Virus record (IMG/VR): IMGVR_UViG_2974602649_000001
Coordinates: 1 to 64,000 of that record
Source: a virus
Taxonomy: Duplodnaviria; Caudoviricetes
DNA: 64,000 nucleotides
Reading direction: 5' to 3' (one strand)
Under the pieces are notes generated by a model that was not told the DNA's origin, did no database searches, and saw only the letters and a list, made by a program, of their open reading frames with translations. Shown in pieces: positions 8,150 through 44,439 of the stretch. Every line of letters begins with the position of its first letter. The stretch's first letter is position 1. Made by a program: the position numbers and the translations under genes.

Positions 8150-8300
8150 TATGATTTTTCAAAAACCGATCTCATTTTTCCGAGTCCAATTTTTGCTCCA
8201 AAATTCCCACGGGGGGTGTTTTAGGGAAAATGGATTCTGTTTTCGATTTTGGAATTTTGGGAAAAGTCGATGAGGGAATTCTGGTGGGAAATGTGGACGC
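8150..8300. other. A/T-tract-rich non-coding segment, candidate left boundary of a long terminal repeat
   Basis: Spaced T and A tracts, G6 run; GATTTTGGAATTTTGGGA resembles GATTTTGGATTTGTGGGA at 21174. Confidence 0.45.
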
Positions 8301-8456
8301 GAATGAGATGCATTCTCAGATGCTTATAGGATCTGTTCTCATTCTCTATTGCAAATGCAAACGGTTCTGCTTTCCATTCTCGAAAAGAAAGCTTTTCTAA
8401 CAGTCGGGCACTCTCCCGCCGACCCCTCTGGGCTGGCAAGATGTGTATATGTGCTT

Positions 8457-8484
8457 AGTCTATCAAATCCAACAGCAGTGTCAA
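8457..8484 (-). promoter_or_regulatory. leftward sigma70 promoter
   Basis: minus strand TTGACA-16bp-TAGACT. Confidence 0.6.
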
Positions 8485-8494
8485 TAATTATTTT

Positions 8495-8528
8495 TGGCAC
8501 GTATTATGCAATTGCAAAAGTCATGCCA
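8495..8528. promoter_or_regulatory. head-to-head pair of sigma54 (-24/-12) motifs
   Basis: + TGGCACGTATTATGCA (8495-8510); - TGGCATGACTTTTGCA (8528-8513); 2 bp gap. Confidence 0.65.
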
Positions 8529-8600
8529 ACTTAAATTTCAGGCTCCCGCCCTGTTTGTCTCCGGTGCTCGGCTCCATGCCTGCGTTGCCCGCTTGTGAGT

Positions 8601-8628
8601 ATTATACACCCCTGAAAAGCAAAAGCAA
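8601..8628 (-). promoter_or_regulatory. leftward sigma70 promoter
   Basis: minus strand TTGCTT-16bp-TATAAT. Confidence 0.65.
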
Positions 8629-8648
8629 CAACTATTTACAGCGATTGT

Positions 8649-8664
8649 TGGCACGTTCTTTGCT
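8649..8664 (+). promoter_or_regulatory. sigma54 -24/-12 motif
   Basis: TGGCACGTTCTTTGCT fits TGGCACG-N4-TTGCW exactly. Confidence 0.7.
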
Positions 8665-8782
8665 ACGCGTACACGCGCGGTCCTTTAATGCCCGGGTATA
8701 AAGAAAAGTGAAATTAAGTATTGACGTACATTCTCCATGCTGTATGATGTGCCCATACCAAACAAACACGGAGCAAAACACC

Positions 8783-9019
8783 ATGCGTTCTATCAAGTCC
8801 CTAGCTCGTGAGGCTTACATTAACCGATACGCTTTCCACAAAGTAACCATTGCAACAGATGGTACAATGCTGGGGCATTGGGAAAAGACTTGGCTTGATT
8901 CGGTGAAGTTGGGTAATATCAATGATTGTTCCACCTTTACAAAATCGAGCAGAACAGGTGTGCAATTCCGTAACCGTGACTCTGTAGTCTTCACATTCGG
9001 AATGGATGTTTTGAAATGA
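8783..9019 (+). CDS. early hypothetical protein
   Basis: GGAG RBS, downstream of promoter 8721. Confidence 0.7.
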   Translation: MRSIKSLAREAYINRYAFHKVTIATDGTMLGHWEKTWLDSVKLGNINDCSTFTKSSRTGVQFRNRDSVVFTFGMDVLK

Positions 9020-9029
9020 GCGTGGTCTA

Positions 9030-9317
9030 ATGCAAGGTAAGTGCCAGAATCGAAACGAATTGAAGGCAGCTAAGGAGGCTGTCTTTCAATTCCTGAAAAG
9101 GAACGGACATAAACCGTTCCAGCAATCTCAGTTAGTCCCGTATATGACCCGGGTGATAGGTGACGTTCAACATCAGGTTAAGACTGATATTAAATGGTAC
9201 ATTGATAACCTTTGGGTGGAAGTGATAGCACATGGTGTTTACCGTGTGCGACTTGATCGGGATATGAGCCGTTTAAAATATCGCAATCAATGTTCAAAAA
9301 AGTTCTTGACTAGGTAA
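9030..9317 (+). CDS. early hypothetical protein
   Basis: ORF track. Confidence 0.55.
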   Translation: MQGKCQNRNELKAAKEAVFQFLKRNGHKPFQQSQLVPYMTRVIGDVQHQVKTDIKWYIDNLWVEVIAHGVYRVRLDRDMSRLKYRNQCSKKFLTR

Positions 9318-9362
9318 ACCATTCCTGTAGAATGGGTGACACAAACAAAGCGGAGCGGTAAA

Positions 9363-9584
9363 ATGAAACACAGTACTTTCATGGAAACCTACAGTGGCGA
9401 AGTTCGTTGCATGGTGACTTACACTGATAATTTTGGTCGTACGATGAAAGGTATTGCCTTGCAGGAACCAACAAAAAGCATTGTTACAGGAAAGTACTGT
9501 GTAGACGTTGATAGTTTCGTCAATCGTGTGCCGCTTAGCCGTATTCACAAAATCGAACGTACTGATAAACGTTGGAGCAACTAA
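9363..9584 (+). CDS. early hypothetical protein
   Basis: GGAG RBS after promoter 9306. Confidence 0.7.
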   Translation: MKHSTFMETYSGEVRCMVTYTDNFGRTMKGIALQEPTKSIVTGKYCVDVDSFVNRVPLSRIHKIERTDKRWSN

Positions 9585-9585
9585 C

Positions 9586-9975
9586 ATGCAAGCTTCGAAA
9601 GTAAAAGTCCGCTTGAAAGATATTCGCCACGGTGTTAAAGTGTTCACAGCGCATCCAGCTTATGGGATCGATGAATGCACTTTGCTTAGCCGACCATTCC
9701 ACAAGCGTGGGAAAATTGTTGGCAGTCTGGGCAACTGGGTAAAAGTTCGTGTTCCTGTATCTACATTGTTCGATGACAGAGGGTATTACGAAGCAGAACA
9801 TTCATTGCGTGACATGGGTATAACATCCACGTATAATGATCGGCGTACTTTCTTCAAAAGAAAACATGCTGAGCAATGGATGGATCAGCAATCCATGTGT
9901 CCACGTTTCCAAGCACGACAAGCGGATCATGAGGAGTGGTGCAAGACACTAGACTGGTACATGGACGATATGTAA
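9586..9975 (+). CDS. early hypothetical protein
   Basis: GGAG RBS. Confidence 0.7.
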   Translation: MQASKVKVRLKDIRHGVKVFTAHPAYGIDECTLLSRPFHKRGKIVGSLGNWVKVRVPVSTLFDDRGYYEAEHSLRDMGITSTYNDRRTFFKRKHAEQWMDQQSMCPRFQARQADHEEWCKTLDWYMDDM

Positions 9976-10049
9976 AGGTTGCACCAAAGCTATTGCTTTC
10001 CTGTAATAGCTTTGCTAGAATCTTTCCTACACAACTGGAGCAACATAAA

Positions 10050-10406
10050 ATGATCGAAGTAAAACGCGGCACTATCTACAAACACCGTATCAACGGCATG
10101 CAATACAAGTGGGATGGTGCAAGCTGGGAATACAAAAGTAAAGTGGATGGCCAATGGTGGCCGTCCTTGTCCAGCAATTTCCGCTTAATTGAAAAGCTTG
10201 AAGAAATCGAAATCGCACCAACTCGCATATTAACCGCGCATGACTTCGACTATAGTCTGACACTTGATCGAACCGAAGAGGGAATGTTTGTTGTAACCTA
10301 CGGTGAACAAGTCACAGCGTGGCAAAAGTGGCAAGATGCGTTCAATGACTTTACAGAATGCGTTGCCCATGCCTCTGACTTGAAAGGGTTACATTACATT
10401 CACTAA
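10050..10406 (+). CDS. early hypothetical protein
   Basis: GGAG RBS after promoter 9993. Confidence 0.7.
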   Translation: MIEVKRGTIYKHRINGMQYKWDGASWEYKSKVDGQWWPSLSSNFRLIEKLEEIEIAPTRILTAHDFDYSLTLDRTEEGMFVVTYGEQVTAWQKWQDAFNDFTECVAHASDLKGLHYIH

Positions 10407-10492
10407 AGCTTTTAACAAAAGCTGTTGACAACGTTAGCAGCTTTGATTAGAATCTTTACCCATAACGCAACACAATCAACTAAGGAAAAGCA

Positions 10493-10624
10493 ATGACCAT
10501 CTTCTTCGCTACTCGTGCTAAACTTCGTGCCTTCTCTTCCAAGAACGGTAAGAAAGTAGACAACGGAGCTAACGCACCGGTAGGTAAGCGCTACGCCTTT
10601 GTAATTGCAAAGGGGAGCAACTAA
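10493..10624 (+). CDS. small basic early protein (43 aa, MTIFFATRAKLRAFSSKNGKKVDNG...)
   Basis: AAGGA RBS after promoter 10425; below ORF-track cutoff. Confidence 0.6.
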   Translation: MTIFFATRAKLRAFSSKNGKKVDNGANAPVGKRYAFVIAKGSN

Positions 10625-10625
10625 C

Positions 10626-10814
10626 ATGGTTGTAGTTATCGGTAGTGCAACTAAAGTAAACTCCGTAAATGGCCACGTTCGACAATTCGATATTGTCAAA
10701 GTAAAACGAAGCACATCGTATGGTTGGGAAGTTGAAGACGCACACGGAAAACATCACATTCTTTTTGATTCGTTTGATGATGTTGTCGTGTTGTTTATGG
10801 GAGAAGAGAAATGA
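10626..10814 (+). CDS. early hypothetical protein
   Basis: GGGAG RBS. Confidence 0.6.
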   Translation: MVVVIGSATKVNSVNGHVRQFDIVKVKRSTSYGWEVEDAHGKHHILFDSFDDVVVLFMGEEK

Positions 10815-11137
10815 AACTGTCCGAAATTCTAGCAGGTGCTATTGAAGTATACGCAGCACATGAAGGTTTGTTTATGTGCCACATTGTGACAGGTGTGTAT
10901 AAGGAAACTTTCCCGTATGCGCACTTTGAGCACACCGGTGATGGTGAGGCTTTGAAGCGACTTATCAATGCCAAACTAAACTACCATGCGACACTTGACA
11001 TTTATCTGTCAGCAAAGGATAAGGATTATCCGGGCTTTATCGATGAAAAAATCGACTGGGGTCATCCTGATTGTTTGAATTATCGTGTTGACTGGTATCG
11101 CGCACTTGTAGTAGAATTGCAGGCACAAGGTAGGTAA
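10811..11137 (+). CDS. early hypothetical protein
   Basis: ATGA overlap, GGAG RBS. Confidence 0.7.
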   Translation: MKLSEILAGAIEVYAAHEGLFMCHIVTGVYKETFPYAHFEHTGDGEALKRLINAKLNYHATLDIYLSAKDKDYPGFIDEKIDWGHPDCLNYRVDWYRALVVELQAQGR

Positions 11138-11141
11138 GAGC

Positions 11142-11233
11142 GTTTGTTATATACACCCGTTGACCTAGCCGATACGCTGGACGGGTAAAGGCCACGCTCT
11201 AAAGGGTGGTTAGTGAGGGTGTATATAACAGGC
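11142..11233 (+). other. long intergenic stem-loop (candidate RNase III site or small RNA)
   Basis: GTTTGTTATATACACCC ... GGGTGTATATAACAGGC 17-bp stem enclosing further hairpins. Confidence 0.6.
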
Positions 11234-11513
11234 TAACTTAATTCGAAGTAGCTTTACTTTAACTGAAAAAGGATATATGATTATGGCTCGCAAACTGACT
11301 GTCAAAGACTTCGCAACCGCTTATGAATATGAGCAACACAAACGTGGCGTGCGCAAAGCTGACAGCAACAAGCGTACCAGTTCTACCGGTCGTCGTGACT
11401 TCCACATTTTTGTTCCACACACAGCGGAAAACAACTAAATTAAGTAGTTGACACCCACTGTAAACCCTGTAAAATACCAAGCATCAAGACAGCAAACACG
11501 GAGCAACACAAAA

Positions 11514-11813
11514 ATGGCACGTAAAATCACCACTGACGCAATCAACGCTTTCATGGCTGGTGAAAAGTTCAACCGTGACAATACCATGGTAAGTGTCGGA
11601 CCTAATACTGGTGCGTGTGGCTTACATTTGCATGGTAACCTGATTGCTACGCGTGAACGCGGGTTGGGTGAAATTGAAATCTCAAATGCTGGTTTCTTTA
11701 CCAACACAACCAAAGAGCGATTGAACGGCATCCCGGGTGTAAGTATTTGCCAGAGGAAAGGCGTCTGGTACTTGAACGGTAATGAGTGGGATGGTTCTTG
11801 GACCAAAATTTAA
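11514..11813 (+). CDS. early hypothetical protein
   Basis: GGAG RBS after promoter 11448. Confidence 0.75.
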   Translation: MARKITTDAINAFMAGEKFNRDNTMVSVGPNTGACGLHLHGNLIATRERGLGEIEISNAGFFTNTTKERLNGIPGVSICQRKGVWYLNGNEWDGSWTKI

Positions 11814-11907
11814 TCGAAAGCTTTTGAATATTAGGTGTTGACAAGGTTAGCACCTAATGACATAATCTTTCTCACAAACAACGCAACATCATTCGGAGCA
11901 ACAAACC

Positions 11908-12351
11908 ATGCAACTGACTTTCTCGCAAATCAAAGCCATCAAATCGTTCTGTGAAGACCTGTTCAGCACCCCGGACTGGCGGGAAGTGGTGGAACAAATC
12001 GCTGACGATGAAACGGACTTTGAAGTTGATAACGTCCGTTTCATTCACACCGATTCGATTGACAGTGTGCTAGCTGATGAGTTAGAAGGTGATGAGTATG
12101 TGTTAGGTTGCTTTAACGCTAACGTCATTGCGGATGTTACCGGCTGGCCAGAGGTTTTGATCGAAGCCGCCAAAAAGGGTGAGGCTTACAAAGAAATTGG
12201 TGAGGCTCTTATTGATGGTGGATTCGTGGAAGCATTGGCAAAGGCTTACTCCGAGGCTGACGGATACGGCCATCACTTCAATTCCTATGATGGGAATGAA
12301 GAAGAGTTGAATGTTAACGGTTCGATGTTCCACGTATTCGACCAGCACTAA
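11908..12351 (+). CDS. highly acidic early protein, candidate DNA-mimic/antirestriction protein
   Basis: about 33 D/E versus about 8 K/R in 147 aa; own promoter. Confidence 0.5.
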   Translation: MQLTFSQIKAIKSFCEDLFSTPDWREVVEQIADDETDFEVDNVRFIHTDSIDSVLADELEGDEYVLGCFNANVIADVTGWPEVLIEAAKKGEAYKEIGEALIDGGFVEALAKAYSEADGYGHHFNSYDGNEEELNVNGSMFHVFDQH

Positions 12352-12493
12352 GTAATAGACAAAGCCCCTTAACTGGGGCTAAGTCGATAGAAAAGATTGA
12401 TTGACAAGGATGCCAGTTGTGCTAATCTAACCCTGTAGACGGTTGATTTAAGCAGTAGCCGCCAATGACGTTATCTTATAACTGAGGTGTGTT

Positions 12494-12715
12494 ATGAATC
12501 CTAGTCGTTATCGTGCTAACGTTTACGCATTGGCTAACCACGCCAGTGCAATGACTGTAGAAGGCTTGCAGCATGCAATATTAGAGGATTGGAAGAATCC
12601 TCAGTGGCCAGCAATCCTATTCGATGGCATGAATCTTGCCTTGCGTAGAAAGATGGGCCGCAATGCGTATGCTCAGTGGTTTAACAGCCTCCCGATTGAG
12701 GAGTCTGATAAATGA
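12494..12715 (+). CDS. early hypothetical protein
   Basis: GAGGT RBS. Confidence 0.65.
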   Translation: MNPSRYRANVYALANHASAMTVEGLQHAILEDWKNPQWPAILFDGMNLALRRKMGRNAYAQWFNSLPIEESDK

Positions 12716-12948
12716 AAAAGCTTGCCACCTACACCGTCACCATGCTTGCATACAACGTGCCAGTTGTGAGGCAGGCAACAATCTACGCTGAGGCTGAGCC
12801 AAACAAGCGTGGGGAAACTTTCGAGGTAAGCACCCACACGGGCGCCCCCGGTGTGCTGTGGGAGTTCCAACCGTTCGCCACCTTGGAAGAGGCAACAGTC
12901 TACGCTCTGAGGTTCTTAGGTGGAACAACCCTTACACAGAAACTTTGA
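12712..12948 (+). CDS. early hypothetical protein
   Basis: GAGGAG RBS, ATGA overlap. Confidence 0.65.
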   Translation: MKKLATYTVTMLAYNVPVVRQATIYAEAEPNKRGETFEVSTHTGAPGVLWEFQPFATLEEATVYALRFLGGTTLTQKL

Positions 12949-13285
12949 AAATAACACTTGACGCCTATTTTGAATGCTGTAGAATGGGCGTCAAGAAAGA
13001 GGAACGGCGATAACGCCAAAATAACCCTCTAGGGAGAAAGTTATGGAATTCAAAACAATCTGCGCTTGCTGTGGTGAAGAAATCAAGCAAGATGTTGTTC
13101 ATGCTGACCCTTGGGGCGATGGTAAAGATTCAACGTTCTGTTCGTTTGAATGTGTGGAACATGTTGCAGATGAGTGGCGTGAGTACATGGATAGTTACGA
13201 TGTCTGACTAAAGCCCCTAATTGGAGTGGAGCCCGCCTAGTGCGGGCTGAGTCAGTAGAAAACAAATGGTTCTGAGGGCTTTACA

Positions 13286-13540
13286 ATGGTTTCCACTTTC
13301 GCTACAATGCTGGTCGTATGCACAATGTCGCAATGCAGTGATTACGGTGCGGACACGGCAAGCTTAGAATTCTCGCAACAACAGAACACAAAGCGTGTTC
13401 AAAAGGAACTTGACAACGCCATGCAAAACGAGCATGATATGCAAAAGTTCCTTGATAAGTATCAAATCGGGGAAACAGTGTTCGAGATAGTAAGCATTGA
13501 TGTAGAAAACCGAACACTGCAAGAAAAAGAAATTCCATGA
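13286..13540 (+). CDS. early hypothetical protein, possible signal peptide
   Basis: hydrophobic N-terminus followed by Cys residues. Confidence 0.6.
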   Translation: MVSTFATMLVVCTMSQCSDYGADTASLEFSQQQNTKRVQKELDNAMQNEHDMQKFLDKYQIGETVFEIVSIDVENRTLQEKEIP

Positions 13541-13621
13541 AATACCGCTTGACTCACCTGTTAACCGGTATTATTATAACCACACTGATTTACACAGCAA
13601 TTCAATTCGGAGCAAGTTAAA

Positions 13622-13834
13622 ATGACAAATCTAACAGTTCGCCAGATACAAGCCCTTGATGTTCGGATGTTTGAAGAGTCTGCTAAAGACTTGATCAAGC
13701 ATGGTGCTGACTGGGTGCATACTGTTGGTGATTTGCTATTGATTGTTGCTCATGATTTCACGGTTTGGTTGTGTGAGCTTCCAGCAAATGAAATCGACTT
13801 ACTCAAAGCTAAAATGATTAAGAGGGTTTTGTAA
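13622..13834 (+). CDS. early hypothetical protein
   Basis: GGAG RBS after promoter 13549. Confidence 0.65.
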   Translation: MTNLTVRQIQALDVRMFEESAKDLIKHGADWVHTVGDLLLIVAHDFTVWLCELPANEIDLLKAKMIKRVL

Positions 13835-14073
13835 TGACTTTGCAACATATCAATCTCGCGTTCCAAGCTGACACTAAGTTTAAGTATCTTGGCTGTGCTG
13901 ATTTAACTGCCCATGCGATGCATAAGATTCCAGTTGGAACTGTTGTAACTCTGAGCCACGATGTGCTAAAGAATGAACTAGATGATTTCTTTGAGTGCAA
14001 ACTGCCAGAGTCTTTTCCGGGTAATGGTACTGCTCAATACTTCAAACGTTCTGAACTCGAAATCATCGGTTAA
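13834..14073 (+). CDS. early hypothetical protein
   Basis: TAATG coupling. Confidence 0.65.
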   Translation: MTLQHINLAFQADTKFKYLGCADLTAHAMHKIPVGTVVTLSHDVLKNELDDFFECKLPESFPGNGTAQYFKRSELEIIG

Positions 14074-14090
14074 TAATTAAGGAGAAAGTT

Positions 14091-14303
14091 GTGTCTGTAG
14101 TTGCTCGTAACACTCGGTTGTATAAAGTCACCATGTCTGACACCGTAAAGGGTCAATCGTTTAGCTTCTCTCAGGAATACGCTGCAACAAAGGAATTTGA
14201 TGCGCGTGTACAGGCTTGGACAGAATACGGGCATGATACAATGGGTTTTGTCTCGAAAAGCTTTAAGGTAGATGACATTCAACTTGTACAGTACAAGGGT
14301 TAA
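14091..14303 (+). CDS. early hypothetical protein
   Basis: AAGGAG RBS, GTG start. Confidence 0.6.
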   Translation: MSVVARNTRLYKVTMSDTVKGQSFSFSQEYAATKEFDARVQAWTEYGHDTMGFVSKSFKVDDIQLVQYKG

Positions 14304-14305
14304 CA

Positions 14306-14611
14306 ATGAACAGTAGGCAACATTTCACTTTAATGGTGGGCGTGGGAGTTGGGTTTGTTGTTCTTGTGTTGGGTGCAATGTACGCACCACCAAAGCCACT
14401 CCCGCCACCAGCACCCCCGAAAGTGGTGCAAAAAGGTGATACTAAAACTGTTCGTGACAATGCAATGTACGCAAAAGTTTTTGATTCTTGCATGGATAAA
14501 TACAGCAACCCTAGCCAGTGTCGGTACACTGCTGAGGAGGCATCCAATACCGAACAGTATTGGGACGGTTCCAAGTGGGTTAAGTTCAACTACAATTTAA
14601 AAGGGGAGTAA
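14306..14611 (+). CDS. membrane-anchored protein with Pro-rich linker
   Basis: N-terminal TM helix, PPKPLPPPAPP, paired Cys. Confidence 0.7.
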   Translation: MNSRQHFTLMVGVGVGFVVLVLGAMYAPPKPLPPPAPPKVVQKGDTKTVRDNAMYAKVFDSCMDKYSNPSQCRYTAEEASNTEQYWDGSKWVKFNYNLKGE

Positions 14612-14617
14612 GTAAAG

Positions 14618-15070
14618 ATGGAATGGTTTCTGATTTATGTTTTCGTCATGATTGAAAAGCTGACAGCAATTCTCGACAAAGGTTACTTTGTCATGTTCGT
14701 CGGTGTTGCTGTGATCTTGTTGTCCTATTTCTTTGTAGGCATCAGTGGTGACACAAACACCACCTACCAAGAACAGCTTGACCGTCCTACTCCAAAGCGA
14801 TTCATTCGCATTGGCAAATGGATGGCAATCCTTGGTTTGATCGGCGGTTTGCTGGGTGAACTTGTACCGGATCAAAAGCAACTCGCAATTATTGTCGGTT
14901 CTGGCGTAACCTATAACGTTCTGACCAGTGAGCCAGCAAAACGCATCGGTGGTAAGGCTATCCAGTTGATTGAAAAGAAAGTGGATGAAGCACTGGGCAA
15001 CGAGGCTACAACGCCCAAAGAGGCACCAAAGAGCGACAACAAGCCAGAGCCGGTAGGTCAGCCTACCTAA
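14618..15070 (+). CDS. membrane protein
   Basis: two to three hydrophobic helices; GGGAG RBS. Confidence 0.75.
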   Translation: MEWFLIYVFVMIEKLTAILDKGYFVMFVGVAVILLSYFFVGISGDTNTTYQEQLDRPTPKRFIRIGKWMAILGLIGGLLGELVPDQKQLAIIVGSGVTYNVLTSEPAKRIGGKAIQLIEKKVDEALGNEATTPKEAPKSDNKPEPVGQPT

Positions 15071-15200
15071 ACACTAAAGCCCCTTAATTGGGGCTTTTTT
15101 GCGTCTGTAGAAAAGTGAAAATAAGTTGTTGACAAGGTAAACGGATCCTGTAGAATGGGCGTCAAGAAAGGGGAAATGTTTCCTCTAAGGAGAAACGCAA

Positions 15201-15374
15201 ATGAACATTCAAGCACGCATTGACTACCTTACCGAAATGCTGGAATCGGCTAAGTATGAGGCAAACGTCAATGTTAACCCCGCTAGAATTGCCTATGAAT
15301 TCTCCGACTTGGTTCGCAACCTAGAGGAGGCAATTGCCACTCTTGAGCATATCAAAGAACTCAAAGCCAAGTAA
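15201..15374 (+). CDS. early hypothetical protein (57 aa)
   Basis: AAGGAG RBS after promoter 15129. Confidence 0.65.
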   Translation: MNIQARIDYLTEMLESAKYEANVNVNPARIAYEFSDLVRNLEEAIATLEHIKELKAK

Positions 15375-15421
15375 TGACAAGCCCCTTAATTGGGGCTAAG
15401 TCAGTAGAAGAGAACTAACAT

Positions 15422-15437
15422 TGTTCCACATGGAACA
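15422..15437. promoter_or_regulatory. parS-like site 1
   Basis: TGTTCCACATGGAACA, one mismatch to the parS palindrome TGTTCCACGTGGAACA; intergenic. Confidence 0.7.
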
Positions 15438-15566
15438 ATCCAAACCAAGGAGGCACCATGGATAAGCAACTGCGCGACATTTTGATTAATGCACTCATTG
15501 CAAACGCTGTAGTTGTCCTGTATGCTATGGTGCATTACCTGAAACCAATCCTCTGGAGTGCTGTAC

Positions 15567-15875
15567 ATGCTTACTAAAGAAATGAAATCGTTCCTTTCTG
15601 ACTGGCTTACGTGGGTAAACATCGGTGCCCCTATTCACGATGTTTTTGAACAGAACGGTCTCTGTTCGAACTTTGACCGCTGGTCAAGCAAACAAGGACT
15701 TGATTTAACTACTTTCGCAAATGGTATCAAGTCCATGAAGCTGGTATTTATCAATGAAGGGCTTGATAGAGAGTTTCCGTTTGATGGTCACGCGGGGAAC
15801 TACCTTGAGGCATTGAAAAGTGCCAGTTTCACAAAGAACCAAATGCGGGTTGACTGGGTGAGAAATCACCTGTAA
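15567..15875 (+). CDS. early hypothetical protein
   Basis: GGAG RBS. Confidence 0.65.
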   Translation: MLTKEMKSFLSDWLTWVNIGAPIHDVFEQNGLCSNFDRWSSKQGLDLTTFANGIKSMKLVFINEGLDREFPFDGHAGNYLEALKSASFTKNQMRVDWVRNHL

Positions 15876-15876
15876 G

Positions 15877-16197
15877 ATGCGAACTGTCAAAGCGACAAGG
15901 CGACCGCTACAGCAAAGCCTGAGACGTAAAGAGGATTGGAGGACCATCCTACGGTCCCCCGAGCCGCTTTCTAGCGCTGATACGCTGGATGCTAGAGCGC
16001 AGGCTATTGATGACTGTAAGTACGCTCTAAAGCTAAATGCGGGACTTTCAAGCTATGCAGCGCTGTGGAATCACTTCGCTATGTGGCTGTACAACAATGA
16101 TGAAATAGTTGTTGACACACACCCTGATCATGCGTATTATCTGGCTATCAAAGAGATTCGGGAAAAGTGGCAAACGTCACAATGTCTTTTGAGGTGA
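15877..16197 (+). CDS. early hypothetical protein
   Basis: ORF track, abuts previous stop. Confidence 0.55.
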   Translation: MRTVKATRRPLQQSLRRKEDWRTILRSPEPLSSADTLDARAQAIDDCKYALKLNAGLSSYAALWNHFAMWLYNNDEIVVDTHPDHAYYLAIKEIREKWQTSQCLLR

Positions 16198-16747
16198 GTA
16201 TGAAAAACATTACACGTTATGAATTCAAACACATTTCAGTTAATGGTGATCCAGTAGCGTGGTTTGTCTTCTATGATGACGATGGGCAACTTGCTCGGGT
16301 TGTGTACACACGGGAAGAGGCTGCCCAATATGAACGAATGGCGTACACTGTCCACCCCGTGTTTGGTGACCCTCAAAATGCGTGAACGCTGGGCAACAAA
16401 AGTTCAAAACGAGTGTGAGACCGCTGGTTTCACATTCACCAAACGAGACGATAACGGGCATTGGGAATGCAAGGACGGTGGCAAGGTTCTGTTTCAATCC
16501 CGTAGCTTAGGTGATGTTCTCCGAAAAGTCGGGAACGCCTTGGAAATTCCAAACTAAGGAGTAACTTGTGATTTATATCATTTTTGCAAATATTCTGGTC
16601 TTCATCATGCTGGCCTTCGCGTGGTCGAGTAATGGGTTAACAAACGTCCTCATTAAAACCATTCTGACCATCCTAGTCGTGATGAACGCGACAATTGCAG
16701 GTGTTGAACTGGGCTTTCTCCCTTCACCTAATTAAGGAGTAATTACA

Positions 16748-16969
16748 ATGTACGAATGCACCCAACACGAAGAACTGAAATCTAAATTTGCAGAAGCCTA
16801 TTACAAGGGGGTCAATGAACCCCTTTCAAAGGAGGAAGACGAACAGCTAAGGACTGAATTCAGAGAACTAGAGGACTCATTAATGGGTGCGATGCCTGAG
16901 AAAGAGTTTCAAGAATTCTATCAGCTAGTACACAATGCTGCATGGGGAAACTCATGTTGGGAACCATAG
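16748..16969 (+). CDS. early hypothetical protein (acidic)
   Basis: AAGGAG RBS. Confidence 0.65.
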   Translation: MYECTQHEELKSKFAEAYYKGVNEPLSKEEDEQLRTEFRELEDSLMGAMPEKEFQEFYQLVHNAAWGNSCWEP

Positions 16970-17302
16970 CCCCTTAATCGGGGCTTTTCTTTATCTGAAA
17001 TTCGTGTATAATGCTTTCCATGGTGTGATTTTCAGCACGAGACAAACACGAATGGTGGGTGTCATTCCCAAGTGGTTATAACAAATTCATTTCTTATTCC
17101 AAAATGATTGTTTACAACGTTTTCAGTTGGCGTATAATGACCACATCAAGACAGGACACACAGTCAAGTCAAAACAAGGAGCGACACCATGCAAGCAATC
17201 AAAGACACCCTCATTTTCCTCGGTTGCTGTGGCATTGTCATCCTTGGTATCTGCGCTCCTTTCCTCATTGTTGACGCACTCCATTACTTTGGGAACTAAC
17301 TC

Positions 17303-17677
17303 ATGACTACTTGGAAACCTACATCTGAACAATCCCGTGAAATCCGCGACTACGCCAAAATGCGTGCCGGTACTGGCTGGGTCAAGTTGGAACTGGGCGA
17401 AAAGGTAAACACAAACCTTGACGCTTGTGCCCGAGGTGCTGTATTCTACAGCCCTAACGTGATGTTGTTCACTGACGACATTCACAACGAAGAAAGTAGC
17501 TATGACTTGGCTGATTTAATCCAGTGGGATGAGTTCCGCAAGAAAGGTGTAGAATTGACTGACGATGGCTGTGCATATCTTGACTTTTATGTGTATGACC
17601 GTGATGGTCTGAATTGCAACATTGCAGTTAGCGTCATGGTTGACGGTAAAGAATCTATTATCCTTTGCGGAGGCTAA
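17303..17677 (+). CDS. early hypothetical protein
   Basis: 124 aa ORF. Confidence 0.7.
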   Translation: MTTWKPTSEQSREIRDYAKMRAGTGWVKLELGEKVNTNLDACARGAVFYSPNVMLFTDDIHNEESSYDLADLIQWDEFRKKGVELTDDGCAYLDFYVYDRDGLNCNIAVSVMVDGKESIILCGG

Positions 17678-17787
17678 TCTACCTTACTGTTGAAAAGTTT
17701 TAAAATAAGGGTTGACACCTTACCCTAAAGTGATAGAATGAACCACATAGAGAGGCGAAACGCCTCAGTCATTAGAGGTAAGGCGTC

Positions 17788-18003
17788 ATGAAAACTATTA
17801 CTTTTGCTGTTCTGATGGTAGTTGGTATCGTTGCTGGTATGAACACATTTGGTCGTGCTGCAATCAATGACTACAACAGTGCAAAGGTTGCAGAAGAGTA
17901 TACACAACGCAAAGCTACCCAACTGGCAGAAGACATTAAAGCTTGTGCGTCTGGTAAAACCACTCTGATTATGGTTGCTGGCAAATTTTGCCACAAAGGT
18001 TAA
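17788..18003 (+). CDS. early secreted/membrane-anchored protein
   Basis: signal-like N-terminus; GAGGT RBS after promoter 17712. Confidence 0.65.
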   Translation: MKTITFAVLMVVGIVAGMNTFGRAAINDYNSAKVAEEYTQRKATQLAEDIKACASGKTTLIMVAGKFCHKG

Positions 18004-18310
18004 TCTTATGAAAATTCAAGTAAAACCCTCACATGTCAAGCGTCGCATGTCGCTTCAATACTCACTTTGGTTACAGGAAAACAAAGGTAAGATATTCACA
18101 GCCACGCTGCATAATATCAACTATTACAAAATCACTGATAGTGATGCACCAATGAAATTGGTTCACATATACGATGCAATTGAAATTGCCCCTTAAATGG
18201 GGCTTTCTTTTGTCTGGCGTTTGTGTATAATGACAGCATACGCTGGGATAGCGTTTCTAAGGTGCGAAGCTGGGCACGAAATAAGCACCGGAGGAGCCTG
18301 AGATTTATGT

Positions 18311-18344
18311 TGGCATGATTCTTGTATTAGCAAAGAGCGTGCCA
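18311..18344. promoter_or_regulatory. second head-to-head pair of sigma54 motifs
   Basis: + TGGCATGATTCTTGTA (18311-18326); - TGGCACGCTCTTTGCT (18344-18329); 2 bp gap; inverted copy of 8491-8546. Confidence 0.65.
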
Positions 18345-18453
18345 GAAAAAAATATTCAAAATAATTGAAAATAGTTGTTGACCTGTTCTGTGATCGGCGT
18401 ATAATTGAACACATCAAGAGGCAACACACACACACACTTAGGAGCGACACACT

Positions 18454-18654
18454 ATGAACCCAGCAATCGCAACCATCCTGATGACCGCTATCGAAGAGTT
18501 CAAAAACGTTAAGCGCAATAAGTCTGGATCGGTTAACGAGACTTCCCGGTTTGCCATCCACAAGCGCGCTACCCGTGCAATTGTTGCCTTGGGCGAAACC
18601 TATGACGATGCCTTCGACATGGTTGCCGAGCTTTCCAAGAAATATGCTGTGTAA
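18454..18654 (+). CDS. early hypothetical protein
   Basis: AGGAG RBS after promoter 18378. Confidence 0.7.
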   Translation: MNPAIATILMTAIEEFKNVKRNKSGSVNETSRFAIHKRATRAIVALGETYDDAFDMVAELSKKYAV

Positions 18655-18747: not shown

Positions 18748-19206
18748 ATGAACGTAATGGCCAAAGCACACAAAGCAGCTAAAACCGCTAAAGCACTGGG
18801 CTCCACCATCGCGTATCGTGAACTGTTCCGTGTTGCCCTCAAGCAAGCCCACAAAGAGTACAAAGCCATGCAAATCGATCCAATGGAAGCCTTGAAACTT
18901 GACACCATCGCTAAGTTTGAAAAACGCTTGAATGAACTGTCTGAACTGCTCAAGGTTAAAGGTGTAGAAGATCAATACATCGTAACCGTTGAAAACATGG
19001 CTGTAGACTTCAACGCTAAAGCCCGCATGCCTTTCTCTGGTATCGAAGGTGCTACAAAGTTCGATAGCAAAGAACATGCCGAACTCGAAGCTAAACGATT
19101 GAAGAACGGTAACAAAGTTGGTGGTGTTGCTGTACGCCTTGACCATCAAATTGAGTTTGAAATGCAAAAACTCTGCCAACTCATCAATGAAATTAAATCG
19201 AACTAA
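18748..19206 (+). CDS. early hypothetical protein
   Basis: AAGGAG RBS after promoter 18672. Confidence 0.75.
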   Translation: MNVMAKAHKAAKTAKALGSTIAYRELFRVALKQAHKEYKAMQIDPMEALKLDTIAKFEKRLNELSELLKVKGVEDQYIVTVENMAVDFNAKARMPFSGIEGATKFDSKEHAELEAKRLKNGNKVGGVAVRLDHQIEFEMQKLCQLINEIKSN

Positions 19207-20016: not shown

Positions 20017-20202
20017 GGAGAAACCATGCCGGACGATCTAGACATTGATCAAGAACACGAGTTATCCCTACTATCCTCACTGGTTCAAGTTGGCATAGTA
20101 ATTACTTCACTTCTCTGGTTATTCTCCCAAAGCCCCTCATTGTAGGGGCTTTTCTTTGTTTGTGATTTGGCAAAATCACTACTGAAATATTTACCTCACC
20201 CC

Positions 20203-20232
20203 TTGACAAACCAGTGAATCGATTGCTACACT
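20203..20232 (+). promoter_or_regulatory. sigma70 promoter facing the non-coding palindrome array
   Basis: TTGACA-18bp-TACACT with extended TG. Confidence 0.55.
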
Positions 20233-20514
20233 AAAGCTACATGCGACGAAGGAAGCATGTATGTATTATCTATATGTATACCTTATTGTATGCGTAGCAT
20301 ACGACACTACCCCTCCTCATGTGCATAGCACATATCATGCCATCCTCATAAGAAAGCAGAACAATAGATGACCACATAAGGTCATCATGCTTTTGCCTTT
20401 GACGTACTGCAATACTACCCATGTGCAAAGCACATAAAGAACAGTTGCAGTACAGATACCTTATCAGAGACTAATACCCCGTAGGCAACGCCTACAAATA
20501 CCCCTTCCCTCATG

Positions 20515-20530
20515 TGTTCCACATGGAACA
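20515..20530. promoter_or_regulatory. parS-like site 2
   Basis: TGTTCCACATGGAACA. Confidence 0.7.
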
Positions 20531-20734
20531 TAGTCCTATACAAGCCTTATACTCGTTGTGTGTGAAACACACCAATGCTTAGAACTTCGCGGCATTGCCG
20601 CAAATACCCCTCTCACAAAGACACCTTTTCCCTAACAATTCAGTTCACGGGCAAGGCTGGCATATGGTACATATGGCTAAGCCGCGCTATCTTGCGATAG
20701 TCAAGGAATATTTATTAAATCACTCTGACTACAG

Positions 20735-20750
20735 TGTTCCATGTGGAACA
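20735..20750. promoter_or_regulatory. parS-like site 3 (inverted)
   Basis: TGTTCCATGTGGAACA, reverse complement of sites 1 and 2. Confidence 0.7.
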
Positions 20751-20941
20751 ATTCATAATTAATCACCCATATCAATACTTCACGGGCAATAGTTACAATC
20801 AATTAGAGAAATCATGTGGCTCATGTCATACTATGCACTTAGTAGGAGAACGCCCCGCAACGGGGTTGCAATCCATGCCCTCACTCGCCTACTGATTACC
20901 TACCCATACCGATCACACCGCCCTCAGGCAGGGGATAAGCG

Positions 20942-20969
20942 GTGTCCTATAATCTGCATTATGTTAAAT
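20942..20969 (+). other. dif-like XerC/XerD recombination site
   Basis: GTGTCCTATAA-TCTGCA-TTATGTTAAAT: 11-6-11 geometry, XerD arm identical to the gammaproteobacterial dif arm, XerC arm ends in ATAA. Confidence 0.8.
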
Positions 20970-21290
20970 TGACGTATGCGTAAAGGAGGCAATCGCTTAG
21001 CAAGTCCCATGCCAATACACCTTCCTTTTCAAATAATAAATCGGTTGACTGGTCTCACGGATTTTGATATTCTAGAGAGGGCCGGGGTATGCCCAAAGTC
21101 CGGGGCATTAAACCCACATACGCAATCTCCTTTGGGATGGAGTACCCACATGCTCAATGACGAGGGTTGCAGGGATTTTGGATTTGTGGGAGAATGGTAT
21201 TGCTGGGAAATCGACTTTCCAAAATAGGGGGAATGGGGTTTTCAGGGGATTCACTTTTCTCTAAGTCTGTGATTGATAAATCACAAGCAA

Positions 21291-21358
21291 AGAAAAGCCC
21301 ACCGATTAAGGTGGGCACACTCAGTCAAGTGCTGGGCAGTCTCACCGATTAAGGTGAG
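21291..21358 (-). terminator. terminator for minus-strand operon, with duplicated hairpin
   Basis: AAAA-GCCCACC-GATTAA-GGTGGGC, then CTCACC-GATTAA-GGTGAG. Confidence 0.75.
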
Positions 21359-43547: not shown

Positions 43548-43622
43548 TCCGGGTTAGCTCAGTGGTAGAGCAGAGTCTTGATAAGGCTTTGGTCGGTGGT
43601 TCGAATCCATCACCCGGAACCA
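43548..43622 (+). tRNA. tRNA-Ile(GAT)
   Basis: cloverleaf, loop TT-GAT-AA, TTCGAAT, encoded CCA. Confidence 0.92.
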
Positions 43623-43627
43623 AATAT

Positions 43628-43701
43628 GGGAAAATAGCTAATTTGGTAGAAGCTGGGGGCGGAAACCCCTGTAGGTCTTGGTTCGATTCCAAGTTTTCCC
43701 C
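43628..43701 (+). tRNA. atypical/degenerate tRNA, probably Phe(GAA)-derived
   Basis: acceptor GGGAAAA/TTTTCCC and T arm intact; anticodon arm GGGGGCGGAAACCCCT lacks U33; no CCA. Confidence 0.6.
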
Positions 43702-43710
43702 ACGTATTAT

Positions 43711-43786
43711 TCCTCGGTAGCTCAGTTGGTAGAGCGCCTGACTGTTAATCAGGTGGTCATTGGTTCGAGTCCAGTCCGGGGAGCCA
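43711..43786 (+). tRNA. tRNA-Asn(GTT)
   Basis: canonical cloverleaf, CT-GTT-AA, CCA. Confidence 0.95.
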
Positions 43787-43790
43787 ATTT

Positions 43791-43866
43791 AGGTTACTAG
43801 CTCAATTGGAAGAGCAGCGGATTCCAAATCCGCCGGTTCGGGGTTCGAATCCTCGGTAACCTGCCA
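43791..43866 (+). tRNA. tRNA-Trp(CCA)
   Basis: cloverleaf, TT-CCA-AA, CCA end. Confidence 0.93.
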
Positions 43867-43938
43867 AAGTCAGATGGTCTTTGTTAGACTGTTAAAACTC
43901 ACCACCCTCCTAAGGTGGTGATCCATTCAGGAGATGAA

Positions 43939-44124
43939 ATGAAGCGCGAAGTGAAAGATTTGATGCGTGTTTATCAGTGTTGTCCCGGTCATGATGATTG
44001 GCCTTGTGACACATACAAAAACAGGCGTTCAAAGAAAGCTCGTTCACGAGACATTGCCAAAGAGCATCGTTATGTAAGGCGAGTAAAAAAGCAAAACTTG
44101 AAAAAGGAGATTGAAAATGACTAA
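43939..44124 (+). CDS. small basic protein in tRNA cluster
   Basis: AGGAG RBS; CCPGHD motif, Arg/Lys-rich. Confidence 0.7.
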   Translation: MKREVKDLMRVYQCCPGHDDWPCDTYKNRRSKKARSRDIAKEHRYVRRVKKQNLKKEIEND

Positions 44125-44283
44125 GTTTTATGATGCAACAAAAGAACACACCAAGTTTGAAAAGTCTGAAGGTAAATCGAAGGCTCACCCAAACAAAGGT
44201 CTGACTTCCCGCAACCCATACTCGGGTAAGTCGAAGTCGTAAGTCGCTCAAGGGCAGCGAGTTAGAAATGCCCACAAGAATAC

Positions 44284-44359
44284 GCTGTCATAGCTCAACG
44301 GTAGCAGCAACTGTTTTGTAATCAGTAGGTTGGGAGTTCAAATCTCTCTGACAGCACCA
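44284..44359 (+). tRNA. tRNA-Thr(TGT)
   Basis: GCTGTCA/TGACAGC acceptor, TT-TGT-AA, CCA. Confidence 0.9.
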
Positions 44360-44363
44360 ATAA

Positions 44364-44439
44364 CTCCTCTTAGCTCAGTTGGTAGAGTGCCCTGTTTGGA
44401 ACGGGGAAGTCGAAGGTTCGAGTCCTTCAGGGGTGACCA
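44364..44439 (+). tRNA. tRNA-Pro(TGG)
   Basis: cloverleaf, TT-TGG-AA, CCA; one acceptor-stem mismatch. Confidence 0.88.

Follow-up and report, generated by a model that had tools for sequence, protein, structure and literature searches.

Sigma54 recognises a bipartite promoter element, TGGCAC-N5-TTGC, whose GG and GC dinucleotides lie one helical turn apart at a fixed spacing, and its holoenzyme remains in a stable closed complex until an enhancer-binding ATPase acts on it. This route of transcription is regarded as strictly host-side and activator-gated, and in phages it is almost unstudied beyond Pseudomonas phage YuA. The sigma54 gene, rpoN, is present in Pseudomonas hosts, and about 80-110 molecules of the protein per cell have been reported in P. 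putida and E. coli. In E. coli, sigma54 holoenzyme is mostly bound in an inactive state and represses transcription where its site overlaps another promoter (PMC4591121). Here we describe pairs of sigma54-type sites that stand face to face at both ends of the early region of Pseudomonas putida phage phiPMW (KU862660, a linear record of 103,218 bp); the window analysed comprises bases 1-64000 of that record. The phiPMW genome paper reports sigma70-type promoters only, does not mention sigma54, and finds no phage polymerase or sigma factor (PMC5587285). Its published sigma70 promoters at 9809-9837, 10425-10453, 11448-11475 and 11838-11866 match our promoter scan in both coordinates and sequence. 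The closest named relative by DNA is Pseudomonas phage vB_PpS_SYP (SYP).

When both strands were searched for TGGCAYG-N4-TTGCW, counting sites with up to one mismatch, 14 sites were found in the window as compared with 1.5 expected from shuffled sequences, and none of 100 shuffles reached 14. The whole genome contained 16 sites with this N4 spacer, 13 of which were located at 8-21.5 kb, around the early genes. Spacers of N1-3 and N5-8 yielded 0-6 sites each across the genome, with one at most at 8-21.5 kb, so that the enrichment was confined to N4. Four of the sites make up two pairs (8495-8528 and 18311-18344), in which the -12 ends are adjacent across a 2-bp gap and the two sites form a 34-bp unit. 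The transcription starts predicted for the left pair, at ~8502 for half a and ~8521 for half b, each fall inside the partner site. Because of this overlap, known footprints suggest that the two sites could not be used productively together and that a unit would hold at most one holoenzyme.

The pairs are embedded in an inverted repeat. A repeat finder delimited arms of 79 nt at 8483-8561 and 18278-18356 with 73% complementarity, and a gapped alignment extended the similarity to ~150 nt, about 8470-8625 against 18205-18365. A first-pass annotation, made from the sequence of the window, had described an inverted repeat of 56 nt with its copies 10 kb apart, two convergent motifs separated by exactly 2 bp in each arm (its title said head-to-head, with the same meaning), and a fifth perfect motif at 8649. 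These descriptions were borne out, the repeat being longer than it had stated. It had also recorded that each pair abuts a sigma70 promoter, which we locate 10 bp from the left pair and 33 bp from the right one, and had argued that two polymerases could not both transcribe from this geometry, a reasonable judgement in view of the overlapping starts. The annotation saw the pairs and the repeat and missed the structured core, the pair-less third module and the wide phage distribution described below.

The two features that define the pair, its half-site sequence and its spacing, were conserved among Pseudomonas phage relatives. Of 15 pairs, 13 had a gap of 2 bp and two a gap of 1 bp, and metagenome homologues contributed four more with a 2-bp gap. 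Across 26 half-sites from 12 loci, TGGCA, T13 and G14 were invariant and C15 was present in 23, while the four spacer positions carried only 0.07-0.6 bits, a pattern of selection confined to the bases that sigma54 contacts. This agrees with the earlier remark that TGGCA cores and most -12 elements are kept and spacers differ, and the retained GG/GC spacing in homologous regions answers the check on spacing conservation that the same annotation had proposed. Half b of the left pair was kept as a half-site in PAK_P1, SYP, Amme-3, phiK7A1, Bitten, EM and Henu5, and in SYP the right-pair orthologue, at L001:4656-4689, has the same centre, TTCTTGTATTAGCAAA, as in phiPMW. The single site at 8649 was conserved in SYP (L007), and phiK7A1 has a perfect site at this place in the opposite orientation. 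In every respect that the letters can reveal, the half-sites are of the sigma54 type.

To place the pairs in a wider context, public collections were scanned for exact matches to TGGCAY-N5-TTGCW, a gap, and WGCAA-N5-RTGCCA. In IMG/VR, where gaps of 0, 1, 2, 3, 5 and 8 bp were used, no contig had a pair with a 0-bp gap, 42 had a gap of 1 bp, at least 120 a gap of 2 bp, 118 a gap of 3 bp, 104 a gap of 5 bp, and 5 a gap of 8 bp. By our own estimate, the chance expectation is well below one per scan. In 596 Gb of prokaryote genomes there were 13 exact pairs with a 2-bp gap, none of them in Pseudomonas. The tight face-to-face geometry is strongly enriched in viruses and nearly absent from cellular genomes, and the literature that we searched contained no description of sigma54 pairs in phage genomes. 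Among the matches listed, the 119 loci with a 2-bp gap fell into 33 groups that share no flanking protein and range from 30 to 66% GC. Single sites accompanied the pairs: in 275 viral loci (2.38 Mb, among the matches listed), 342 exact sites with the N4 spacer were found outside pairs, and five at most with any other spacer. Arrays of 2-4 pairs with a period of 43-57 bp were common in viral contigs. The densest array seen, at L196:418-720 in an IMG/VR contig of 44 kb and 60% GC, consists of four pairs with alternating 2- and 3-bp gaps and one single site within 300 bp, i.e. nine sigma54-type sites in a row; a PHROGs scan of the genes beside these four pairs returned nothing useful.

The positions that the search pattern left free were also informative. 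In 268 viral pairs, position 7 was G at a frequency of 0.59 and A at 0.38, position 8 was a purine at 0.73, and T preceded TGGCA at 0.61; all of these preferences agree with the sigma54 consensus in the literature. Between the two halves of a pair, spacer identity was 26.9%, which is the level expected by chance. A dimer operator or a cruciform would show two-fold symmetry running through the half-sites together with a fixed gap; in these pairs gaps of 1, 2, 3 and 5 bp were all common. Because the spacers vary independently and the gap ranges from 1 to 5 bp between lineages, the unit appears to be neither a hairpin nor a rigid dimeric operator. The occurrence of one specificity in 33 unrelated locus groups spanning 30-66% GC, and in several genera of Pseudomonas phages, suggests that the reader of the sites is universal and therefore probably a host factor. 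Since selection keeps complete, independent and asymmetric half-sites of this specificity in many unrelated phages, the simplest candidate for this reader is the host sigma54 holoenzyme.

Most of the sites are not placed as gene promoters would be. In the window, only the site at 8649 has such a position: a sigma70 promoter (8721-8748) follows it after 57 nt, and the first early gene (ATG 8783) after 119 nt. Six intragenic sites were observed at 8-20 kb as compared with ~0.3 expected; all six are in early open reading frames (ORFs), five of them antisense. Viral single sites lie mostly outside long ORFs, and an ORF start followed downstream of 31% of them, compared with 24% when the orientation was flipped. 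Neither the activator domain PF00158 nor the sigma54 domain PF04552 was found in phiPMW or in 25 other, larger viral records. The lack of gene-promoter behaviour, together with the lack of an activator supplied by the phage, leads us to favour effects of occupancy: host sigma54 holoenzyme would bind the pairs and the single sites and act by its presence there, rather than by firing them as classical promoters. We hold this reading tentatively, as possible rather than probable.

In the mechanism that we propose, one holoenzyme would occupy each 34-bp unit in either orientation, forming a stable closed complex that needs no activator. The parked holoenzyme would cover the zone upstream of the -35 element of the adjacent sigma70 promoter (P2), which sigma70 holoenzyme needs, and it would also stand in the path of transcripts arriving from a promoter on the other side of the unit (P1). 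The predicted consequences are competition with P2 or its occlusion, and the marking of unit borders. The pair could in this way throttle or gate the noncoding and early transcription that leaves both ends of the early region, to a degree set by the free sigma54 holoenzyme available per phage genome. The identity of the motif, its spacing, enrichment and conservation, the geometry and the absence of an activator gene are what was observed; binding by sigma54 holoenzyme, mutual exclusion within the unit, the occlusion of P2 and any role in timing are what we infer. A coupling to P2 is supported by a constant distance. Measured from the outer TGCCA, the pair lies 10-11 bp from the P2 -35 element in all 11 left-type modules (in phiPMW the -24 end of half b is 10 bp from the -35 element of the leftward P2), and 31-33 bp from it in the right type (31 bp in the SYP orthologue), about two helical turns more than in the left type.

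Read outward from the 10-kb block between the arms, each arm consists of a -10 element (P1), a conserved noncoding core of ~70 nt, the pair, an A/T-rich stretch and the strong sigma70 promoter P2; coordinates are given in the table. The stretch between the right pair and P2-R is likewise A/T-rich. At P1, TGTATAAT or TGTAGAAT was kept in most of the relatives sampled, including those that have no pair, and was weaker in SYP, phiK7A1 and EM; from this sequence, P1-L would be a promoter that points into the core and the pair. The homologue of P2-L in PAK_P4 is annotated as 'promoter_03' of as16, a noncoding RNA defined from RNA-seq data. Over 133 nt, the terminator, -10 element and leader of the right arm (18183-18315) share 88% identity with SYP; megablast matched little else in this neighbourhood. 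The leader contains a hairpin, CGCU-GGGAU-AGCG, with GGA in its loop, a second hairpin, GUGC...GCAC, and then GCACCGGAGGAGCCUGAGAUUUAUG.

A third copy of the module, without a sigma54 pair, was found at 16966-17140 through the repeat families D3 and D4, and it resembles the pair-less form present in Otagovirus-type relatives. SYP has three module copies as well. There the pair and the right-arm leader belong to separate cassettes 1.35 kb apart, whereas in phiPMW they stand together. More generally, a terminator followed by a strong sigma70-type early promoter is repeated between small early genes (modules at 16966-17140 and 18185-18405). The promoter scan returned 40 promoter-like sites at 7.5-21.5 kb, with 23 expected, in addition to terminators, and the early region contains the repeat families D1-D6. 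In the Otagovirus-type phages and some uncultivated relatives, P1, the core and the downstream promoter were kept and other sequence replaced the pair; in the Otagovirus-type phages, an inverted repeat, CATTC..GAATG, stands where the sigma54 pair would be. This repeat, probably the site of another protein, is related to the repeated motifs to the left of the left module that are described below.

The core of the left arm (8541-8592) was the most conserved noncoding DNA that we found, with 75-83% DNA identity in 142 Pseudomonas phage records. These include the Pakpunavirus members PAK_P1, PAK_P2, PAK_P4, PaP1, JG004, K5, K8 and PaoP5, the P. putida phages Amme-3, NoPa, KoPa-4 and Roomu-2, P. 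syringae phage phiK7A1, P. protegens phage Bitten, and Otagovirus-type phages. The core has the features of a small structured RNA. The purine/pyrimidine pair in its outer stem covaried in all 15 sequences compared, and its inner stem occurred in eight different sequences (GGC/GCC, GGUC/GACC, GACG/CGUC, GCCC/GGGC, GUAC/GUAC and others). GGA occupied the loop over these covarying stems in 15 of 15 sequences, with 2-3 more GGA motifs besides. A G.U pair on the strand read from P1 was tabulated for phiK7A1 and read by eye in metagenome locus L135; on the other strand it would be an A.C mismatch. The core is followed by GGAGACAAACA and further GGA motifs (CCGGAGA, CAGGGAGGGAG) and then, at a constant distance of 23 nt, by the pair. 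RsmA/CsrA targets characteristically present GGA in a hairpin loop, and by analogy the core could be an RNA that binds RsmA/RsmE or one that mimics a Shine-Dalgarno sequence.

Searches for a known family or further members gave little. Rfam, applied at the gathering threshold over the window and in E-value mode to both arms and the PAK_P4 homologue, reported only the six tRNAs at 43.5-44.4 kb and nothing credible at the element. Single-sequence folds of 200-290 nt of the leftward RNA gave z-scores of only about -2 and are not built upon here. An exact-match scan of IMG/VR for the right-arm RNA type gave no match. When metagenomes were scanned with a 16-base core pattern, most of the matches were due to chance; eight passed the flank filter (seven distinct contexts), among which five were new homologues.

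Features of the sigma54-type sites and the modules in the window (strand + reads left to right; mismatches are to the sigma54-type pattern)
Feature	Position	Strand	Description
Left pair, half b	8495-8510	+	TGGCACGTATTATGCA, 1 mismatch; faces right
Left pair, half a	8513-8528	-	TGGCATGACTTTTGCA, 0 mismatches; faces left, same direction as P1-L and P2-L
Right pair, half a	18311-18326	+	TGGCATGATTCTTGTA, 1 mismatch (GC to GT in -12); co-directional with P1-R and P2-R
Right pair, half b	18329-18344	-	TGGCACGCTCTTTGCT, 0 mismatches; faces left
P2-L, strong sigma70-type promoter	8457-8484	-	TTGACA(8484)-16-TAGACT(8457), promoter scan; 10 bp from left pair
Core, GC-rich, small structured RNA-like	8541-8592	-	5-bp outer stem, inner hairpin, GGA always in loop
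P1-L, conserved -10 element	8601-8606	-	TATAAT within GTGTATAAT; points into RNA-like core and pair
Right-arm terminator and P1-R	18188-18231	+	Intrinsic terminator 18188-18203 plus T run; TATAAT 18226-18231
Right-arm leader	18232-18310	+	Diverged paralogue of the RNA-like core; aligns with left arm and SYP
P2-R, sigma70 promoter	18378-18405	+	TTGACC(18378)-16-TATAAT(18405); 33 bp past right pair; serves gene at 18454
Third module copy	16966-17140	+	Terminator, GTGTATAAT, leader with GCACGAGACAAACAC and GGTGGGTGTCATTC, promoter TTTACA-16-TATAAT; no sigma54 pair
RNA-like elements, all locations	8541-8606; 18226-18310; 16966-17070	-; +; +	Homologues e.g. L006:2560-2640, L025:3860-3935
Single perfect sigma54-type site	8649-8664	+	TGGCACGTTCTTTGCT, 0 mismatches
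Sigma54-type site	9031-9046	-	1 mismatch; antisense, over start of ORF at 9030
Sigma54-type site	12625-12640	+	1 mismatch; within ORF 12494-12715
Sigma54-type site	12747-12762	-	1 mismatch; antisense within ORF 12712-12948
Sigma54-type site	19066-19081	-	1 mismatch; antisense within ORF 18748-19206
Sigma54-type site	20327-20342	-	1 mismatch; gene-free stretch right of early genes, faces back into them
Sigma54-type site	20999-21014	-	Perfect; same gene-free stretch as 20327, faces left

In Pakpunavirus, the sigma54-type sites also bracket an early region, of ~12 kb, with one of the brackets at the genome end. PAK_P4 has clusters at 55671-55856 and 67531-68480. In PaP1, the second cluster comprises six sites at 90672-91633, in the last 1.05 kb of the record; all six are inside the 1190-bp terminal redundancy, which was determined experimentally and holds g156 and g157, and this cluster is the counterpart of the right-hand sites of phiPMW. 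Two noncoding RNAs, as16 and as17, are annotated in the two PAK_P4 regions examined, and both coincide with the sigma54 clusters. as16 (55650-55850, - strand) has its 5′ end within the pair (55823-55856), whereas a transcript from P2 would be expected to start ~70 nt further downstream, and as17 (67500-68700, - strand) covers the second cluster, of five sigma54-type sites. According to the PAK_P4 transcriptome paper, 15 of 17 antisense RNAs lie in structural genes.

Some further observations concern the surroundings of these elements. Just upstream of a perfect + strand site (PAK_P4 55671-55686), PAK_P1 and PAK_P4 (L006:2110-2345, L025:3430-3650) have four GGAACTGGACAGTTTTT-like repeats and three GTTAGCA repeats ~21 bp apart, an arrangement reminiscent of an origin or of a promoter that depends on an enhancer. 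The noncoding DNA to the left of the left module contains repeated (GA)ATCATTCTCA / GCATTCTCA motifs (window 8290-8360; L007:2360-2450; L021:700-790; L022:700-790), which are common to phiPMW, SYP and the Otagovirus-type phages. At the other end of the early region, 1.1 kb without genes (20150-21300) separates the rightward early genes from a leftward gene block; this stretch is rich in short palindromes (CATGTGCATAGCACAT, GTTCCACATGGAAC, GCGGCATTGCCGC) and in repeated ACCCCTTCCCTCATGTG-like words. The SYP gene vBPpSSYP_9 (L001:4743-4973) is annotated on the - strand. On the + strand, an ORF (ATG 4784) for a small hydrophobic protein immediately follows a sigma70 promoter and has a leader typical of early genes; the strand given in the deposit is probably wrong. 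The labels 'tRNA-Gly' and 'terminator' at the match in phiMK were discarded as annotation artefacts, the features spanning tens of kb: in the record KU761955.1 (L017), 'tRNA-Gly' 6787-67912 and 'terminator' 5304-53863 are coordinate errors. The six tRNA genes of the window (Ile, one of undetermined type, Asn, Trp, Thr and Pro) are at 43548-44439. For ten flanking proteins of phiPMW, neither Pfam nor PHROGs gave a function.

Several other explanations have to be set against occupancy, and the most serious of them is that the sites are classical enhancer-dependent promoters, fired by a host activator that works from solution or through an upstream site not recognised here and yielding noncoding or antisense RNAs at the early-region borders, with each pair serving as a bidirectional unit used in one direction at a time. 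The sites match sigma54 promoters fully, and YuA, a P. aeruginosa phage, is reported to use sigma54-like promoters, one of which was recovered by both ONT-cappable-seq and a promoter trap (PMC10914365). In PAK_P4, as16 and as17 are on the strand of the - sites, with the 5′ end of as16 in the pair, and the perfect + site of PAK_P1 and PAK_P4 (55671 in PAK_P4) follows three GTTAGCA repeats that resemble activator sites. However, sigma70-type promoters or read-through are also possible sources of both RNAs, no activator gene was found in phiPMW or the 25 other viral records, and no conserved upstream palindrome was seen for the pairs. Activator boxes (NtrC, CbrB, FleQ) and an IHF site were looked for near the pairs by eye, and the matches were partial, so that no claim is made. 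The orientation of the sites is almost unrelated to whether an ORF lies downstream, and the location of each predicted start inside the partner would hinder initiation rather than help it. We therefore regard activator-driven initiation as unlikely. A sponge, in which the 16 or more sites per genome copy soak up, while the phage DNA replicates, the small host pool of sigma54, free or as holoenzyme, and thereby switch off the host sigma54 regulon or shift core polymerase to its sigma70 form, on which all the phage promoters depend, would explain why there are many sites in both orientations, arrays of 2-4 pairs in other phages, and neither an activator nor a logic of orientation; the genome paper's sigma70-only promoter list, with no phage polymerase or sigma factor, is in its favour too (PMC5587285). 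A sponge would need no fixed position, no register of 10-11 bp and no tight pairing that leaves only one half occupiable, the sites cluster where the early region begins and ends instead of being spread along the genome, and core polymerase held in closed complexes would be a polymerase cost to the phage. These points make a sponge quite improbable.

It is also conceivable that a different protein, such as a phage regulator, a small terminase or packaging factor, or a replication protein, reads the palindrome, which would resemble or mimic a sigma54 promoter. Of 339 non-redundant viral loci, 100 have a gene for a small AT-hook protein ~410 bp downstream of the pair, and a large terminase gene after it (in a tblastn search against isolated phages, the recurrent terminase gave distant matches only, with <45% identity and mixed hosts), and the right-hand Pakpunavirus cluster is in the terminal redundancy. 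Periods of 43-57 bp in the arrays recall sites of protein assembly, the four T(G/T)GCA pentamers are mutually similar, and the distances imply that the dyad of the pair is near -63 or -84 of P2, positions typical of a class I activator. On the other hand, one specificity of 11 positions across 33 unrelated groups (30-66% GC) and several genera of Pseudomonas phages would be unlikely for a lineage-specific protein, and the free positions follow the sigma54 consensus. Complete single sites, which are not palindromic, are far commoner than pairs, a gap that varies from 1 to 5 bp would be intolerable to a rigid dimer, and none of 26 viral genomes encodes a sigma54-like DNA-binding domain. On this balance we consider another reader as improbable as a sponge. 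A structure in nucleic acid itself, whether an RNA hairpin or terminator of the P1 transcript or a DNA cruciform, is suggested by the form of the unit, a 34-bp imperfect palindrome (repeat family I4), and by its place just past the small RNA-like core. Yet the half spacers are not complementary (their chance-level identity in the 268 pairs is matched by agreement at 0-2 of 4 positions in phiPMW, PAK_P1 and SYP), a gap of 1-3 nt is too short for a loop, and no U run follows the palindrome on either strand. On the missing U run and the non-complementary spacers we reject a terminator or hairpin, and this explanation is close to excluded. A signal that stops DNA entry in two steps, as in T5, was considered because the early region adjoins the PaP1 genome end, and was dropped as speculation for which there is no evidence.

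The favoured reading, occupancy by sigma54 holoenzyme, has weaknesses of its own, and several results count against it. For all sites, binding is predicted from the sequence. As Otagovirus-type relatives retain the module without the pair, the pair is dispensable for it and can be regarded as an optional addition to a module of greater age. The 5′ end of as16 fits initiation at half a or read-through from P1, and not a tight block. Holoenzyme bound within E. coli genes had no effect on the overlapping genes and formed no roadblock (PMC4591121), which makes the part of the model that stops P1 transcripts weak. Pairs in the wider viral set have no sigma70 -35 element at a constant place beside them, and a pair ~410 bp upstream of the AT-hook and terminase genes would also fit packaging or a late promoter. 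The presence of sigma54 in all hosts of the metagenomic contigs is presumed. Of the functions that the first-pass annotation had suggested, the tuning of early transcription fits best, given the fixed 10-11 bp to the -35 element; a pure roadblock is weakened by the E. coli data, and a decoy is possible.

A more specific and more doubtful extension of the occupancy reading is that the pairs are a virus-specific element with which many unrelated phages park one sigma54 holoenzyme as a non-transcribing clamp, or as a timer titrated by copy number, at the borders of units, beside early promoters, packaging genes and genome ends. In phiPMW and Pakpunavirus, this clamp would in addition be wired to the RNA with the GGA hairpin and may engage the host Rsm system. 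As the sigma54 pool is small and fixed, occupancy per genome would fall while phage DNA replicates, and if the idea is correct, the clamp would gate or time transcription across the borders according to phage copy number. The conserved element in the Pseudomonas phages, the virus-enriched geometry and the lack of an activator in the viral genomes tested together suggest that phages use the stable binding of sigma54 holoenzyme without its firing, which is undescribed in the literature searched. A further outcome of the analysis is the small RNA-like element, which covaries strongly, has no annotation and occurs in more than 140 sequenced phages. The group that carries the sigma54-type element at a fixed place includes widely used therapeutic P. 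aeruginosa phages (PAK_P1, PaP1, JG004, K5/K8, PaoP5 and relatives) and spans phages of P. putida, P. syringae and P. protegens. The idea is testable in standard systems, KT2440 with phiPMW and PAO1 or PAK with PAK_P1 or PAK_P4, for which rpoN mutants exist. PaP1 and K8 have been reported to use O-antigen, and their adsorption should therefore be independent of rpoN.

Among described systems, the sigma54-like promoters of YuA (Ceyssens et al. 2008, as cited in PMC10914365) are similar in that this virulent Pseudomonas phage, which encodes neither sigma54 nor an activator, has -24/-12 type sites and relies on host sigma factors. In the description given there, on which our comparison is based, the YuA sites are single and drive transcription, whereas the sites described here are tightly paired within a module of constant layout and lie mostly antisense or in noncoding DNA. 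The inactive and intragenic sites of E. coli (Bonocora et al. 2015, PMC4591121) share with the phage sites, as we interpret them, a holoenzyme that is bound without firing, in many cases within genes or antisense to them, and competition with other sigma factors at overlapping promoters is the mechanism that we propose for the pair and P2. The E. coli sites differ in being single, with no face-to-face pair reported, and repression by roadblock was tested there and was not found. The small RNAs of the RsmY/RsmZ type in Pseudomonas, which titrate RsmA/RsmE of the CsrA family, resemble the core in having several GGAs, one of them in the loop of a covarying short hairpin; the core differs from them in having one hairpin rather than several, and no intrinsic terminator, recognisable GacA box or Rfam match. 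The architecture of the early region has a parallel in the PeSL cassettes of T4-type phages (Arbiol et al. 2010, PMC2839356), short repeated units in which a stem-loop terminator is joined to a strong early promoter of the sigma70 type and which stand between small early genes that are non-essential. The phiPMW early region is built like them, with the sigma54 pair inside two such cassettes, whereas PeSLs are described there without a sigma54-type element or a structured RNA core, and phiPMW is not documented here as a T4-type phage. For the modular shuffling or mini-circle formation attributed to PeSLs there is one hint here, the pair and the right-arm RNA that are in different cassettes in SYP and together in phiPMW. 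Compared with these systems, the element is, judged by its motifs, a set of sigma54 binding sites of a known kind in an unusual, conserved and virus-enriched geometry, and among occupancy, activator-driven initiation, a sponge and another protein, it is occupancy that we favour.

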